A DNA stretch of 30,450 bases from a virus (lineage: Duplodnaviria; Caudoviricetes): the IMG/VR virus record IMGVR_UViG_3300020045_007544, positions 1 through 30,450 of that record. One strand, given 5' to 3'. Position numbers and translations under genes: made by a program. The notes under the pieces are model-generated. The model ran no database searches. It was not told the DNA's origin and saw only the letters and a program-made list of their open reading frames with translations. Positions 6,596-30,441 of this stretch are shown piece by piece (position 1 is the first letter of the stretch; each line of letters begins with the position of its first letter).

Positions 6596-6640
6596 GGAAG
6601 GCCCTCAACTCTGCGTAGGGAGTTGGGGGCTTTCCTCTAC
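6596..6640. terminator. Hairpin terminator between convergent capsid and HNH genes
   Basis: GGAAGGCCCTCAACTC / GAGTTGGGGGCTTTCC, a 16 bp stem with G-U pairs. Confidence 0.7.
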
Positions 6641-7240
6641 CTTGGATTTCCAGACTTTCCATTCCATCCAAGTTTTATTCCCTTTAGATGAGTTACATGA
6701 TTTGCATAAGGTTATGAGATTACCGATTCCATGATCTCCTTTTCGAGTTCTTGGAATTAAATGCTCGATAGTCATTATTGATGTATCTTTACTGGCATGA
6801 CAAGCAAAACACTTTGAATCATAAAGTGTGTTAATTTCCTTATTTGTGACATAAAAAACTTTTCCTCCAAGTTTTTTAGTCATACTCTTGAGCATTGCTT
6901 CTGCTCTGCGCCTATAATTCTTTCTTGCTCTGACCGCTGCTTTGCGATTTACATATTCTTGATTTGCCAAGCGATAGCGCTTATTTGACATATAAACTTC
7001 AACAGGTTTTTCTTGTCTGCGCTTTCTCGAGTATGCTCGCCCCTTCTCAGGATCTTTCGCATAATTCCTAGCATTTTGAGCTTTGATTATCTCGGGATTG
7101 TTTGCACCATAGTTGCGCTTGTATTCTCTCCAACAGCTTCGACATCTAGGGCGGTATTTGCCAGGTCTATCATGGCGAGGAATAAACTCACTTAGAGGTT
7201 GGGTTTGCTTGCAGAAGTTGCATAGCCTAGACTCATTCAT
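6605..7240 (-). CDS. HNH homing endonuclease (antisense, AT-rich)
   Basis: N-terminal CxxC...CxxC, basic helical middle, CFAC...IEHLIP...H...NLITLCKSCNSSKG. Visibly lower GC than its neighbours; RBS AAGGAG. Confidence 0.9.
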   Translation of the reverse strand: MNESRLCNFCKQTQPLSEFIPRHDRPGKYRPRCRSCWREYKRNYGANNPEIIKAQNARNYAKDPEKGRAYSRKRRQEKPVEVYMSNKRYRLANQEYVNRKAAVRARKNYRRRAEAMLKSMTKKLGGKVFYVTNKEINTLYDSKCFACHASKDTSIMTIEHLIPRTRKGDHGIGNLITLCKSCNSSKGNKTWMEWKVWKSKVEESPQLPTQS

Positions 7241-17197: not shown

Positions 17198-17680
17198 ATG
17201 GTATCCGCAATGGTCAGCTTGGCTACAACTACCCTTGGCAGCGCAGCAAGCACTGTCACTTTCAGCAGTATTCCTGCAACTTATCGCGATTTGCGGTTAG
17301 TTGTGAGTGGAACTACTGGAAGTCTTAACCTTATTCTGATTAAGTTGAATGGTGATTCAGGAACAAACTATTCATCGGTGCAGATGTATGGTGACGGCAC
17401 AAATGCGGCATCCGCATCAGGCACAGGTGAAATCGGAACTGCTATTGGTATTTTTGGCACAACTCAAGCCTCATCAACTTGCGATGTGATGGACTATTCG
17501 GCAACTGATAAGCATAAGTCTGTTTTATCGCGCGGTAATAATACTGCTAATACTGTTCGAGCTTGGGCTGGTCGCTGGGCTTCAACTGCTGCTGTTACTT
17601 CGCTTCAGGTTTATCCTAATGCTGGTGACTCATTTCAAGCCGGAACAACTGCCAGCCTCTATGGGATTGTGAGCGCATAA
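17198..17680 (+). CDS. Tail-associated protein, paralog 2
   Basis: [45 protein letters not shown]. Confidence 0.78.
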
Positions 17681-18381
17681 TGGCTTGTGCGGTCGATGGC
17701 TGTGACAAACCGCATGATGCTAAAGGCTATTGCAACTCTCACTATGCCAAGTTTCGCCGCTATGGCAATCCGCTAGAACCCTCAAAGATGCGCGGAAAAT
17801 ACCAAGGCGCTAGTTGTCTAGTCGATACTTGCAATGAGTTTGCAAAGGCGAATAACTACTGCGGAGCGCACAATGCTCGCTTCAAAAAATATGGTGACCC
17901 ATTGGGCTATAGATTGCGAAAAGAGCGCAAAGTATGTGGCAACCTAACTTGCGAGCGGTTAGCTCAAACTGGTGGCTACTGCGATACTCACAAGCGCTGG
18001 TTCAATAAAACTGGGGATGCCAATGTGCGCCCTCCTCAACAGCGCACAGGCCCTCGCCCTGGTTCGCGCAAAAGCCCTATTACTCCAAAGAACTATATTT
18101 TGAAGTATGTTACCGATCATCCTTACCTAAAAGATGGCAATCAATTTGAGCATCGGGTTGTGATGAGTGAGGCATTAGGCAGACCATTGTTGCCTTTAGA
18201 AAATGTCCACCACAAGAATGGTGATAGGCATGACAACAGGATTGAGAATCTAGAGATTTGGTCAACAGCTCAACCGTCAGGTCAGCGGATTGAAGATAAG
18301 ATTGATTATGCGCTTGAGATTCTTGCTCAGTATGCGCCCGAGTATTTGAAGGATGGTGCGCCTTGTCAATCAGCAAGCTAG
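17680..18381 (+). CDS. HNH homing endonuclease with three N-terminal Cys/His repeats
   Basis: EHRVVM..LGRPL...[21 protein letters not shown] (HNH_3-like); three Cx4C-x9-CxxH repeats. Confidence 0.9.
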
Positions 18382-23783: not shown

Positions 23784-24403
23784 TCAACTATCAGATTGAG
23801 CGCATACCAAATAAAAGAGCTTTAGAAATGGTTGTTGCCAATCACTATCTGCACAGATCAGCACCTGCTATGTTTGCCTTTGGTTTGTTTGATGGTCTTG
23901 ATATGGTTGGCTGCATTATTTATGGCAAGCCAGCGAATCAACAACTTTGCAAAGGTGTCTGTGGGCCAGAAGAATCTGGTGCTGTTTTAGAACTCACCCG
24001 CCTCTGGATTGAAGATGGCACACCAAAAAACACCGAGTCATTTCTTATCGGTAATAGCTTGAAAATGCTACCAACCGAGTATGACATCATTGTGTCTTAT
24101 GCCGAAATAAGCGCTGGCCATGTCGGAGTTGTCTATCAGGCAACCAACTGGCTCTATACAGGGCTGAGTGATCGACACAAGCAATGGCAGTTAGATGGGG
24201 TTGCAAGTCATAATCGCCATCTGTTTGATGAGCATGGTGGCACTAAGGCAGCTTTGGACTTCTATGGTGACAGATTGCAATTAGTCGAGCGAGGGCGAAA
24301 GCACCGCTATGTCATGCTAAGGGGCAACAAGTCGCGCAAGAAAGAATTGCTGTCTAAGCTGAGATATGAGATCAAGCCTTATCCAAAGGCTGTGCTAGAA
24401 TAA
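23780..24403 (+). CDS. mom: Mom-like (GNAT-fold) DNA adenine modification enzyme
   Basis: NHYLHR, VLELTRLWI, PKNTESFLI, IVSYA...GHVGVVYQATNWLYTG, KHRY match phage Mu Mom-family motifs. Confidence 0.82.
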   Translation: MINYQIERIPNKRALEMVVANHYLHRSAPAMFAFGLFDGLDMVGCIIYGKPANQQLCKGVCGPEESGAVLELTRLWIEDGTPKNTESFLIGNSLKMLPTEYDIIVSYAEISAGHVGVVYQATNWLYTGLSDRHKQWQLDGVASHNRHLFDEHGGTKAALDFYGDRLQLVERGRKHRYVMLRGNKSRKKELLSKLRYEIKPYPKAVLE

Positions 24404-24508
24404 AAGAGAACCGCCCCAGAAACCAAACATCCAGGGCGGCTCATACCGATAGATCAAGTATCGGCAAGTTCCAGTCTATATGATTGAGCTGCCGAAGAAG
24501 GGCAGCAA

Positions 24509-24637
24509 ATGGCAAAAGATAACCACCGCCGAGGTCAGCTCGAGCGCAAGGTCAAGGCCCAGCAGAAGCAACAGAGCAAGTTCGATGCTCAAACTGAGCG
24601 CATGGTTGCGCAAATCAAAGCACAGCGACTAAAGTAA
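24509..24637 (+). CDS. Small basic protein, 42 aa (not in ORF track)
   Basis: MAKDNHRRGQLERKVKAQQKQQSKFDAQTERMVAQIKAQRLK*; RBS GAAGGG lies within the hairpin GCTGCC/GGCAGC. Confidence 0.6.
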   Translation: MAKDNHRRGQLERKVKAQQKQQSKFDAQTERMVAQIKAQRLK

Positions 24638-24640
24638 ACT

Positions 24641-25000
24641 CTCATAGCCAGAGGGTCTACCCGTCAGCCTGGCTCTAAGTCAACTGGATTCGCCTCATCC
24701 GCGTCTATATCGCCCGTCAGAGGGGCATTACTTGCCTACCCCAAATGATTAGCTTGGGGTTGACCGCAGGGAAAGACCGCCACTTCGAGAGAGGTGTTTA
24801 GATCCATGATGGCGCGGTTGCACAGCATCTACCCAGCCGCCTTTGTAGCTGTCATGGTAGGCGTAGATTGCTTATCGCGAGGTAAGACATTCCGACAACC
24901 GATAGTCCTTATACGGCAGGTGAGAGGGGAAAGAGCTGACCTAGCCTTTTCTCTCTTCCCTCCTGAGCCTTGCCGGCAGGTCTGGTATTGCTTGCGATAC
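24641..25000 (+). ncRNA. Candidate large structured non-coding RNA (unclassified)
   Basis: Upstream -10-like TAAACT; about 10 stems, GAGA, GCGA and CTTG tetraloops, several G-U pairs, no credible ORF. Confidence 0.65.
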
Positions 25001-25017
25001 TTTGCTAAGGTTTAGTT

Positions 25018-25293
25018 GTGGATTGGTTTGAGGACAAGGCGAGGTGTGTGCGCTGTGGTTTGGCTTGGGTGGTTTCCCCTGACAAGCGCAAGCGAACAGA
25101 TTTGCTTTGTGTTTCTTGCCGCGCTCGCCCTGCGAAGTCGATTAGTTATGGTCATCGGAAGCCTTGTTTGCCTGGCACTGAGTTTGATGAGTTTGACAAT
25201 CCGCTGATTAATGGGCATCCTTTACTTGGGTTGCGATCTTGTAACCACACTGATTGCTGTGAGTTGAGCCATCTCTCCAGTGATACACAATGA
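25018..25293 (+). CDS. Cys-rich (Zn-binding) protein
   Basis: CVRC..CVSC..C..CNHTDCC..H; leaderless TGC-TAAGGT-N6-GTG. Confidence 0.75.
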   Translation: MDWFEDKARCVRCGLAWVVSPDKRKRTDLLCVSCRARPAKSISYGHRKPCLPGTEFDEFDNPLINGHPLLGLRSCNHTDCCELSHLSSDTQ

Positions 25294-25314: not shown

Positions 25315-25431
25315 ATGGCAACTACTAGTAACAGAATCTTGTGGCCTACTCATAAGGCGAAGGCGGCAGCTCGCAAGGCTAAGAAGGCTCGCAATCTGCC
25401 TACTGGCCCAATCATCAAGGGGGCTTTCTAA
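25315..25431 (+). CDS. Small Lys/Ala-rich basic peptide, 38 aa (not in ORF track)
   Basis: RBS GAAAGGGA; MATTSNRILWPTHKAKAAARKAKKARNLPTGPIIKGAF*; TAATG-coupled to ssb. Confidence 0.7.
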   Translation: MATTSNRILWPTHKAKAAARKAKKARNLPTGPIIKGAF

Positions 25432-25784
25432 TGGCGCGCATTGAAGTCACTGGCACTGCCACTCGCTTGTTCTTTCAGGATAAGGGTGTGGAGGTTACTG
25501 AGTTCGCTAAGGGTAAGGATGGGGCTATGATTCAGCGCCGCTATACCGCTTGGTTTGAGAACCCTGTTTCATTCCGCGAGGGTGCTGAAGGCACTTTCTC
25601 TGGCTCTCTATCTGCGACCATTGACAAGTGGACTAATGCTGATGGTTCGGTGAAGCTTGACCGCGAGGGCAACCCTGGTCAGTCTGTGAAGGTGTCTATC
25701 AATGGCACAGTTTTCACCCCGAGCAACAACTCCCCTCAGCCGGTTCAGTCGGCAACCCAAATCATTGATGAGATGCCTTTTTGA
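25431..25784 (+). CDS. ssb: Single-stranded DNA-binding protein (divergent)
   Basis: Beta-strand pattern compatible with an OB fold, and acidic C-terminal tip DEMPF. Confidence 0.75.
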   Translation: MARIEVTGTATRLFFQDKGVEVTEFAKGKDGAMIQRRYTAWFENPVSFREGAEGTFSGSLSATIDKWTNADGSVKLDREGNPGQSVKVSINGTVFTPSNNSPQPVQSATQIIDEMPF

Positions 25785-26194
25785 TCTCATTTCTAGTTGA
25801 AGGCCGCCCTTCTCCTCAAGGCTCAAAAAGCCCTGGGCGAGGAGGGCGCTTCTATGAGGCGAGCAAGTATCTGCCAGCATGGCGCTCGGCGGTATCTCTA
25901 GCAGCCAAGCATGAGATGATGCGGTTGGAGATGGGTGAGCCTATTGCTGAACCTTTACAGCTTGAGGTGACTTTCTTTATTCAGAAGCCGAAGTCATCTA
26001 AGTGGGCGCTTTATCCTGCTGGCACTCCCGATCTGTCAAAACTAATTCGCGGTGTTGAGGATGCTTTGACTCATGCTGGTTTGTGGGCGGATGATGCCTT
26101 GGTGGTCAATGTCTTGGCTCGCAAGCGGTGGACTGGTGTGACCTCGGACACTTACCCTGTGCCTGGTTGCCGAATCACTGTTACAAAACTGTAA
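25781..26194 (+). CDS. rusA: RusA-family Holliday junction resolvase
   Basis: VEGRPSPQGSK, PDLSKLIRGVEDALT..WADDALVV. Confidence 0.9.
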   Translation: MISFLVEGRPSPQGSKSPGRGGRFYEASKYLPAWRSAVSLAAKHEMMRLEMGEPIAEPLQLEVTFFIQKPKSSKWALYPAGTPDLSKLIRGVEDALTHAGLWADDALVVNVLARKRWTGVTSDTYPVPGCRITVTKL

Positions 26195-26831: not shown

Positions 26832-27018
26832 GTCTGCTTTTCAGCAAGCACTTGAAGCCGCATACAAGAGCGGTGTCGAGGCTGGCAAGGAAGAGCAATA
26901 TAGCCAGATGATGAATGAGCTGGAGAACCTGAACCTCGAATACAAGCTCAAGAAAGCGCCTGGCATGGTCTTTGTGACCCTGCGGATCATGATGAAGCGG
27001 TTGCGCCATGAGTTCTAA
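26815..27018 (+). CDS. Hypothetical protein
   Basis: RBS AAGGAG; start 26815 or 26818. Confidence 0.7.
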   Translation: MMELTESAFQQALEAAYKSGVEAGKEEQYSQMMNELENLNLEYKLKKAPGMVFVTLRIMMKRLRHEF

Positions 27019-27583
27019 GACCTGCTCAACCGAGCATTGCATGAGTCGCGCATACACTGGCGGCCTCTGTGTCGGACACTTCCGTGCCAAATACAGCCCA
27101 GCCGAACTGGCTACCAAACCGCGCCCAACCTGCAAGATGGAAGGTTGTGCATCAAGACAGCGCCACCTAGACCTCTGCGCTCGCCACTACCAGATTGTCC
27201 GCCGAGCTGAGATGCGCAACAAGAACCAAGAGTGCATTGTGCAACCCTGCGAGGGCATCAACTACCGCGAGGGTCACTGCAAGGGTCACTATCTGGAGCG
27301 CTTTCCGAAGGCTGAAACCAGCATCCCTGACTGCCGCCGCCCTAAATGCACCCGCCCGATGGTTCGCTTCCTCGGGTGCGACCTGCACTGGCGTAACTAC
27401 CAGCCACGACCTAAGACCGGCGAGAAAACTGCCGATTCTTGTAGCGAGCCAGAGTGTGTAAATAAGAAGTTCTCAATGGATCGCTGTCAGCTGCACTATA
27501 ACCAATGGAAGGGCAGCGCAAGCCAGGCTGATGACTTCTGGCAATTTGTGAAGCAAGAACTCAAACTGGAGGATGCAAAATGA
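27008..27583 (+). CDS. Protein of five tandem Cx4C-x9-CxxH repeats (putative Zn fingers)
   Basis: CSTEHC..CVGHF, CKMEGC..CARHY, CIVQPC..CKGHY, CRRPKC..CDLHW, CSEPEC..CQLHY. Confidence 0.8.
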   Translation: MSSKTCSTEHCMSRAYTGGLCVGHFRAKYSPAELATKPRPTCKMEGCASRQRHLDLCARHYQIVRRAEMRNKNQECIVQPCEGINYREGHCKGHYLERFPKAETSIPDCRRPKCTRPMVRFLGCDLHWRNYQPRPKTGEKTADSCSEPECVNKKFSMDRCQLHYNQWKGSASQADDFWQFVKQELKLEDAK

Positions 27584-30119: not shown

Positions 30120-30194
30120 TGACCACTAGCTCAATGGCAGAGCAATCGGCTGTTAACCGATAGGTTCTAGGTTCGAGTCCTAGGTGGTCAGCCA
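30120..30194 (+). tRNA. tRNA-Asn (GTT)
   Basis: Acceptor TGACCAC/GTGGTCA plus G-CCA; D-arm GCTC/GAGC; anticodon arm ATCGG-CTGTTAA-CCGAT; T-arm CTAGG-TTCGAGT-CCTAG; upstream TAAGAT. Confidence 0.96.
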
Positions 30195-30207
30195 GAAAGG
30201 GAGAAGA

Positions 30208-30441
30208 ATGAATTGTCACTGCGGTAATCCAGTCAAGGCTAAGGGTTTGTGCCAGAAGCACTATCTAGCCGACTACCGAGCCAGAAAGAACAGAGGAGAA
30301 CTACAGAAGCGCCCTCTTGTCTATACAGTTCGCATAGACAAAGACCGCTGCGCTGTTGTTGACTGCTTCGATAAGCACCGCGCCAAGGGCTTATGCACCA
30401 AGCACTACTTCCAAGCGAGGAGAAGCAATGCCGCTTTATAG
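30208..30441 (+). CDS. Small protein with two AKGLCxKHY repeats
   Basis: Start moved to ATG 30208, after the tRNA and RBS GAAAGGGAG. Confidence 0.75.
   Translation: MNCHCGNPVKAKGLCQKHYLADYRARKNRGELQKRPLVYTVRIDKDRCAVVDCFDKHRAKGLCTKHYFQARRSNAAL

Follow-up and report, generated by a model that had tools for sequence, protein, structure and literature searches.

How replication starts in a small tailed phage that has no recognisable replication gene is the question raised by this locus. Many such phages are known, and the element described here would be a concrete answer for one group of them. The window, i.e., the whole stretch of DNA analysed, is a virus record of 30,450 bases that is 96% complete. 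It has a siphovirus-like gene set comprising terminase, portal, capsid, tail, WhiB, RecE, Erf-like, Mom-like, and RusA genes. A PHROG scan of 56 window proteins gave no match to an initiator, helicase, primase, or polymerase, in agreement with the first-pass annotation, which had noted the lack of the first, second, and third of these. At about 30% identity, the RecE neighbours come mostly from phages of Gordonia, Mycobacterium, and Arthrobacter and, together with WhiB, this suggests an actinobacterial host.

The place where an initiator gene had been expected is occupied by a non-coding element of about 340 bases (~24643-24981). It is followed by three genes:

25018..25293, + strand: gene for a 91-aa Cys/His-rich (zinc-finger) protein of a conserved family, which marks the slot and is the first gene in the G+T-rich zone
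25431..25784, + strand: probable ssb with an acidic DEMPF tail; G012 and G014 have a phrog_44 ssb at the same position
25781..26194, + strand: RusA-like resolvase (phrog_140, E 5e-25)

The zinc-finger protein and the probable ssb protein have no match in PHROG or Pfam, and the ESM Atlas gave only leads below 0.9 for the former. The zinc-finger protein is present in at least 310 viral stretches, directly after every type of module (RNA, initiator, or initiator with DnaB). It could have a replication role itself.

Distribution and family status

Copies of the element are found in 31 phage-like contigs, namely the window, 22 other viral contigs, seven metagenome contigs, and one genome-bin contig. 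The last is the sole genome_contigs match of the search and is a phage-like contig end inside a genome bin. The homologues were gathered by searches with the downstream zinc-finger protein and with DNA patterns, and in every case the zinc-finger gene follows immediately, even where a copy was retrieved only by a DNA pattern. Chance matches were dropped from the pattern scans (3/8, 4/23, and 113/120); of two further scans, one gave eight already known contigs and the other none. Identity to the window is 47-90% in 28 aligned copies, L083 is identical to L019, and L149 is nearly identical to L010. A 98-position covariance model represents the central domain of the element and misses the divergent L022 and L244, whose membership is based on nhmmer matches to the 5′ part (E 5e-17 and 3e-23) and on reading by eye. 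In these two (L022:2610-2980 and L244:2630-2985) the 5′ domain is usual, and the P6 region is rebuilt with an extra branch.

The Rfam search for a known family gave no match in the window or in 16 homologous loci. With the Rfam 15 covariance models at gathering and E-value thresholds, the best hit in the window (E 2.2) and the best in the 16 loci (E 4.1) both lie outside the element. Apart from one 42-base chance match, blastn searches of 50,697 phage records and, with the L062 copy, of 72,556 plasmids gave nothing. Full-text searches of the openly available literature showed no description of this RNA. Excerpts of PMC10690425 list viral candidate RNAs, of 29-151 bases in its IMG/VR set; six motif words are absent from six of its supplementary files, and three more files may hold fragments of the family. 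The word 'replication' is absent from preprint 10.64898/2026.09.22.753630.

A codon-like conservation, which would speak for a protein, is not seen across 27 copies. They share no reading frame, the longest stop-free stretch being 37-92 codons with varying strand and place, and the MAFFT alignment of the element has many non-triplet indels. The idea of an unclassified phage ncRNA is thus borne out, since covariation, an excess of G-U pairs, and the lack of an Rfam match support an uncatalogued plus-strand structured element. Judged by comparison of the copies, this family of structured RNAs is real and in no catalogue, and it is strongly linked to the initiation of replication.

Secondary structure

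The structural features of the element are as follows:

24646..24674, + strand: P1, a 5-6 bp stem, a bulged A, and a 3-4 bp hairpin, with a GUYRRN internal-loop strand at 24663-68
24679..24780, + strand: subtype-specific domain with a GTCAAC/GTTGAC helix and an ACCCCAA/TTGGGGT hairpin
24686..24706, + strand: P2, a bulged hairpin with a 7-nt loop (24694-24700)
24710..24730, + strand: P3, a hairpin with a conserved GUYAGAN loop (24716-22)
24781..24796, + strand: P5, a hairpin with a (U/A)GAGAG(A/U) loop in most copies
24804..24857, + strand: P6, a long two-part hairpin with a 13-nt loop
24827..24868, + strand: pseudoknot of the P6 loop ATCTAC (24827-32) with GTAGAT (24863-68), the latter preceded by an invariant GGC
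24871..24886, + strand: P7, a hairpin capped by a GYRA tetraloop
24899..24908, + strand: conserved single-stranded CYRANWGTCC motif with invariant GTCC columns
24922..24962, + strand: P8, a purine/pyrimidine hairpin between direct-repeat copies

All arms and loops for which the first-pass annotation gave positions lie where it placed them, three short inner hairpins having been given none. Folding of single sequences is uninformative as evidence of structure and was set aside. The window copy folds no better than its shuffles (z -1.10, with 16/100 as good), a result that by itself would speak against the proposed RNA; 15 of 27 copies have a mean z of -1.7. It is therefore comparison that supports the structure as real. 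RNAalifold, applied to a MAFFT alignment of 26 copies made from sequence only, predicts 50 pairs, 40 of which change on both sides. A second structure, read off the L062 row, comprises 11 helices with 68 pairs, and 92.2% of its cells are paired, compared with 72.7 ± 0.7% in 500 shuffles and 29-41% when the structure is slid, both controls being biased in its favour. Double changes occur at 53 of the 68 pairs, and the compensatory changes expected among homologues of a true RNA do keep the helices. When all columns of a hand-segmented alignment of 27 copies (~9 effective sequences) were scanned against each other for mutual information, with a tree-based null, the top 16 pairs comprised 14 helix pairs and two direct-repeat pairs, although only five reach E 0.05 or better and 13 are at E below 1. 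There are 66 G-U cells and only six A-C cells, which fixes the plus strand. Among the marks first read as signs of a plus-strand RNA, the G-U pairs and the GNRA loop hold, while the CUUG hairpin (24985-25000) is not kept outside the window and L001.

P1 is paired in 100% of cells and seven of its nine pairs change on both sides, so that the AGCCAG/CTGGCT stem is supported by compensatory change. P2 has the top covarying pair of the alignment and 94.7% of its cells are paired; here the covarying hairpin is CGC (24691-93) with GCG (24701-03) and not the GGAT/ATCC hairpin suggested earlier. In P3 (92.9% paired, double changes at 5/6 pairs) the CC/GG core of the proposed GCCC/GGGC hairpin covaries, but only these inner pairs hold in the register of the window. 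The GTCAAC/GTTGAC helix and the CCCAA/TTGGG hairpin are true in the window's subtype only, the former having 6 bp in 5/27 copies, and other subtypes have a 5-bp P4 hairpin in the 24679-24780 domain. A GCCTA/TAGGC pseudoknot had also been suggested, and finds no support: it is already broken in L004, which is 90% identical.

The hairpin at 24781-96, now P5, corresponds to a covarying 5-bp stem in homologues; the MAFFT alignment shifts the window row out of register there. The long hairpin at 24804-57 (P6) is well supported by compensatory changes, with 16/17 pairs changing on both sides, and is recovered by RNAalifold. Likewise, the ATCTAC/GTAGAT pseudoknot proposed for its loop is 97.8% paired and three of seven pairs change on both sides, two of them being A-U 18/G-C 8 and A-U 21/G-C 4. 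Its best pair alone has E 4.5 in the mutual-information scan and is not significant. The held-out L244 and L022 keep the pseudoknot with other words (AGTCGC/GCGGCT and ATCGC/GCGAT, by eye). The stem of the GNRA hairpin P7 covaries as well, and its GYRA loop occurs in 27/27 copies, 19 viral and seven metagenome ones of which were fetched with a pattern containing GYRA.

P8 is 85.9% paired, has double changes at only 2/6 pairs, and is not recovered by RNAalifold. The outer GGCAGG/CTTGCC arm of the hairpin once drawn at 24915-74 is not supported, and a direct repeat is conserved there instead. The GTCAGC/GCTGAC pairing has 5-6 bp in the window's subtype and 3-5 bp elsewhere, and a kissing pair of the P8 loop with the GUYAG loops could form 3-7 bp; neither covaries clearly. 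Overall, about a third of the pairings first proposed are wrong or subtype-specific. Resemblances to group I introns, RNase P, HDV, and pistol were dropped, as Rfam support is absent.

Predicted promoters and possible transcript

Two promoter boxes are predicted around the element:

24630..24635, + strand: TAAAGT, predicted as the -10 box of a promoter for the element itself, with a predicted start at ~24642-43
25003..25011, + strand: predicted extended -10 promoter (TGCTAAGGT) of the leaderless zinc-finger gene, with a similar motif in relatives

In 18/27 copies a TANNNT box begins 20-23 bases ahead of the bulged A in P1; the other 9/27 have none at this distance. Its placement leads to a predicted 5′ end at ~24643. 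The conserved box is TAAAGT and not the TAAACT at 24635-40 that had been noted as the leading motif. A motif like TGCTAAGGT lies 15-18 bases 5′ of the zinc-finger gene in 12 of the 15 other RNA genomes listed.

In metatranscriptomes, 16 runs contain small shares of matching sequence. Of four RNA libraries compared with the locus, two have one contig each on the element, at 24643-24863 and at 24627-24784, with a depth of ~4 and no other piece over 10.4 kb; the other two have pieces on the flanks only. These contigs are at most a hint of transcription, because the runs were chosen by words from the region and may hold DNA.

Exchange with protein initiators

Related phages have an initiator, with or without DnaB, exactly in the slot of the element, as the first-pass annotation had expected. 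Among 29 zinc-finger loci, 11 have the element, six have an initiator alone, and 12 have an initiator and DnaB. The initiator family phrog_270 occurs in 0/22 RNA-bearing records (seven of them at least 90% complete) versus 14/14 others, DnaB_C occurs in 0/22 versus 8/14, and the RNA model matches 21/22 element records and 0/18 others. One further virus record with the element also has no initiator (0/1). A second census, overlapping the first and covering the best 80 of 310 zinc-finger loci, comprises 19 with RNA, 41 with initiator and helicase, 10 with initiator, nine with helicase only, one unassigned, and none with both RNA and initiator. In six other near-complete RNA genomes, helicase, primase, polymerase, and initiator are absent among 61 cluster representatives, which cover 109/307 ORFs (at least 110 aa) without a window homologue. 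The element is in the exact slot of the initiator and never alongside it, and therefore likely starts phage DNA replication itself.

The clearest case is L002/G022. Its zinc-finger protein is 93% identical to that of the window and its flanks are closely shared, and its slot contains a 264-aa initiator (phrog_9474, E 7e-36) and a 133-aa gene. In the trees of RecE and of the 114-aa protein, G022 falls within the RNA genomes; this swap exchanged RNA for initiator precisely. In the portal and capsid trees the RNA genomes form one side, and in the RecE, 114-aa, and HNH trees two changes suffice, one of them being G022. The mutual exclusion thus rests on only about two independent swaps and is phylogenetically thin.

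The small number of independent swaps leaves room for an RNA with no part in replication, such as a leader, a ribozyme, or a GOLLD/ROOL-like scaffold, in a phage replicating by RecE/Erf recombination or from a host-initiated origin elsewhere. The window does have RecE and Erf-like genes, and one RNA genome lacks the strand bias described below. Such a role is nonetheless rather unlikely: in the genomes examined the two modules are never together, loci with neither are never seen where there is enough DNA, and the nested G022 swap is precise. Furthermore, the downstream gene has its own predicted promoter, Rfam gives no ribozyme or leader match, and perfect DnaA boxes occur near the slot in only 1/16 RNA genomes and are not conserved. 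That one genome is L001, where two DnaA boxes are present at L001:2490-2530, ~500 bases upstream of the zinc-finger gene.

Direct repeat and strand bias

The 3′ part of the element contains a direct repeat in place of the outer arm mentioned above:

24914..24921, + strand: direct repeat copy 1 (CGGCAGGT), from comparison of copies
24974..24981, + strand: second copy of the direct repeat, 60 bases on from the first; putative start of an RNA-DNA hybrid

The repeated word has 4-9 bases and its copies, 51-61 bases apart, flank P8. They share at least five bases in 25/27 element copies versus 4.8% across repeat types, the types having been assigned by the analyst from the words themselves. Six sequence types occur among the lineages and both copies change in step; the held-out L244 and L022 also have a direct repeat, with new words (by eye). 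No complement to the repeat occurs at a shared position of the RNA, and 11/27 copies have no complement at all. Matching copies without a partner in the RNA point to a shared outside partner, the simplest being the template strand. The repeat could also have arisen by mutation through template switching at an origin.

Single-stranded DNA accumulates A-to-G and C-to-T changes. In 16/16 element genomes, the gene next after the element exceeds the genome mean of G+T at fourfold sites by 0.18-0.39 and ranks first or second among the genes. The excess fades over ~1.3 kb, and nothing is seen upstream. Pooled G/(G+A) is 0.70 in this gene versus 0.39 elsewhere, and pooled T/(T+C) is 0.77 versus 0.67. 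In 5/5 genomes with initiator and helicase, the G+T peak covers these two genes, its window beginning 1.3-3.3 kb further upstream. In four related initiator-only genomes the gene ranks 22nd-36th with no peak after the initiator (it is 3rd in G022), and the skew is therefore not a general mark of origins. The step is missing from the held-out G040 (L244), which has the RNA and lacks an initiator (0.37 versus 0.49 for the genome), and is therefore counted in 16/17. Transcription could add to the skew, since the zinc-finger gene has its own predicted promoter. The cumulative skew minimum was rejected as a marker of the slot, as it lies within 150 bases of it in only 3/16 RNA genomes.

The same fold might form in plus-strand single-stranded DNA as a primase or primosome assembly signal, with transcription only opening the duplex. 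Covariation cannot separate RNA from single-stranded DNA, as is said of plasmid motifs in an excerpt of PMC5737381, and the rare ACG/CGT sites are kept in P1 (26/27) and P3 (20/27). This alternative seems very unlikely, however, because the -10 box is one start-site distance before the first helix, G-U cells far outnumber A-C cells (66 versus 6) and GYRA loops are present, and the skewed, putatively displaced zone is downstream of the element rather than over it.

Proposed mechanism

The element is very probably a replication origin module, when variants acting as a scaffold or as single-stranded DNA are counted in. In its more specific form, the proposal is that of an R-loop-forming primer RNA like ColE1 RNA II, an RNA-based origin of phage replication, which is fairly probable. 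An RNA-primed origin had been one of the roles first suggested, and slot exclusion, the co-varying repeat, and the downstream G+T step favour it. Host RNA polymerase would transcribe the element from the TANNNT box with a start at ~24643, and the RNA would fold. P8 would bring repeat copy 1, in the RNA, close, and the template strand would be captured at copy 2, near the 3′ end of the transcript. In the resulting R-loop, RNase H would trim the RNA and DNA polymerase I would extend it towards the zinc-finger, ssb, and rusA genes. The displaced plus strand would be single-stranded over ~1-1.3 kb and would load the host primosome; the A-to-G and C-to-T bias would be explained by this exposure. 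A ColE1-type G-run and a conserved antisense promoter are not seen (by eye), and a repeat of 4-9 bases gives a weak hybrid, both of which count against the primer reading.

The RNA may instead be the initiator and not a primer, its transcript or R-loop recruiting host helicase or primase directly. The same data on RNA/initiator exclusion would fit, ColE1 hybrids also activate synthesis without priming according to an excerpt of PMC4412123, and the fold is richer than priming alone would require, with conserved GUYAG loops, a T-loop-like UGAGAG loop, a GNRA loop, and a pseudoknot. Direct recruitment is unlikely, since priming with strand displacement is the simpler account of the co-varying repeat and of a one-sided G+T step that begins at the 3′ end, and a dedicated partner protein is absent, the zinc-finger gene being present in all slot types. 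The ribozyme or scaffold first offered as further options has nothing positive beyond the ornate fold.

Comparison with known systems

Excerpts of PMC5043065 and PMC4412123 show that ColE1 RNA II resembles the element in having no element-encoded initiator and in being a non-coding transcript from an upstream promoter, which is predicted here. In RNA II a stretch of RNA seeds a persistent template hybrid; pairing of its rG stretch with the template dC stretch is essential for a stable R-loop (PMC4412123, in part), and the direct repeat would allow the same. RNA II differs in belonging to an enterobacterial plasmid and in having 550 nt, the rG/dC stretch, and antisense RNA I. In contrast, the element is from phages, has ~340 nt, a variable repeat of 4-9 bases, and a pseudoknot, and an antisense RNA is not seen (by eye). 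No homology to RNA II or RNA I was found, the L062 copy having no plasmid match and Rfam no match, and no conserved minus-strand -10 box, as for antisense RNA I control, was noticed in the element alignment (by eye).

In the lactococcal Ceduovirus (c2, bIL67, and 923), as described in excerpts of PMC7150918, the origin is also a non-coding transcript, PE1, between two promoters, and these origins support replication without phage proteins. The element likewise lies between two boxes, 24630-35 and 25003-11, both being predictions only. Unlike it, Ceduovirus has a host of another phylum, and a covarying fold or an initiator exchange is not described in those excerpts. In the phage collection the element has no match that would give it >90% identity to one of the three Ceduovirus ori types. 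The ARRPOF, PAGEV, and GEBRO motifs (PMC5737381 and PMC12990946, in excerpts) are similar in being covarying motifs of 223-349 nt tied to replication regions, and ARRPOF is pseudoknotted and in a region replicating without rep. In contrast, they are plasmid motifs of Fusobacterium, Vibrionales, and Streptococcus, and no Rfam model, these motifs being covered as far as Rfam contains them, matches the window or the 16 homologous loci. At the R-loop origins oriF and oriG of T4, a phage transcript hybridised to the origin also primes, while these have a promoter with an unwinding element and T4's own replisome, and a large conserved fold is not described in the excerpts (PMC4412123; PMC3016281). 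The element is thus outside the Rfam, ColE1, and c2 sequence families, yet probably works like the ColE1 and c2 origins.

Natural swaps are at hand in both states, and the comparative signature of co-varying repeat and one-sided skew predicts where priming would start. If confirmed, ColE1-like priming would extend to actinobacterial phages with an unrelated pseudoknotted fold, and a protein-free replicon of ~400 bases would be at hand. It would also offer a test of the way in which a persistent hybrid is seeded by an RNA, which even for ColE1 is called speculative in an excerpt of PMC5043065. More tentatively, and with some doubt, the element may represent a new class of compact pseudoknotted RNA that is a drop-in for an initiator, or even for initiator and helicase, and that opens and primes the phage DNA via a short re-programmable repeat with two copies changing in step. 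If true, this class would serve a widespread group of actinobacterial phages, the phylogeny would record the pairing of RNA and template, and new versions of two words of 6-8 bases could be enough to retarget the origin.

Other features of the window

ACG/CGT sites are strongly avoided in the window, with 43 seen versus ~537 expected from dinucleotides. The five such triplets said to be retained in the element are confirmed, as 24641-25000 holds 5/43 of the sites versus 0.5 expected. The same avoidance is found in G001 (28/480), G003 (17/343), G011, and G013, and is absent in G004, G005, G014, G015, and G021. This lineage-specific avoidance may reflect a target of a host nuclease or modification.

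A 42-aa Lys/Arg-rich ORF (24509-24637) precedes the element, and its stop overlaps the -10 box. Another Lys/Arg-rich ORF of ~38 aa (25315-25431) is situated before ssb and is conserved in L001-L004; both were read from the sequence. Further upstream, at 24393-24470, a promoter-like site, TGCTAGAAT, is followed by a two-hairpin leader that is common to L004 and the initiator-type L002 (L002:1547-1613), and L001, L003, and L050 have leaders of a similar kind ahead of the slot. The window has four HNH/endonuclease VII-type genes (6605-7240 on the reverse strand, 17680-18381, 27008-27583, and 30184-30441), the first of which is directly after the capsid gene. A tRNA-Asn is present at 30120-30194.
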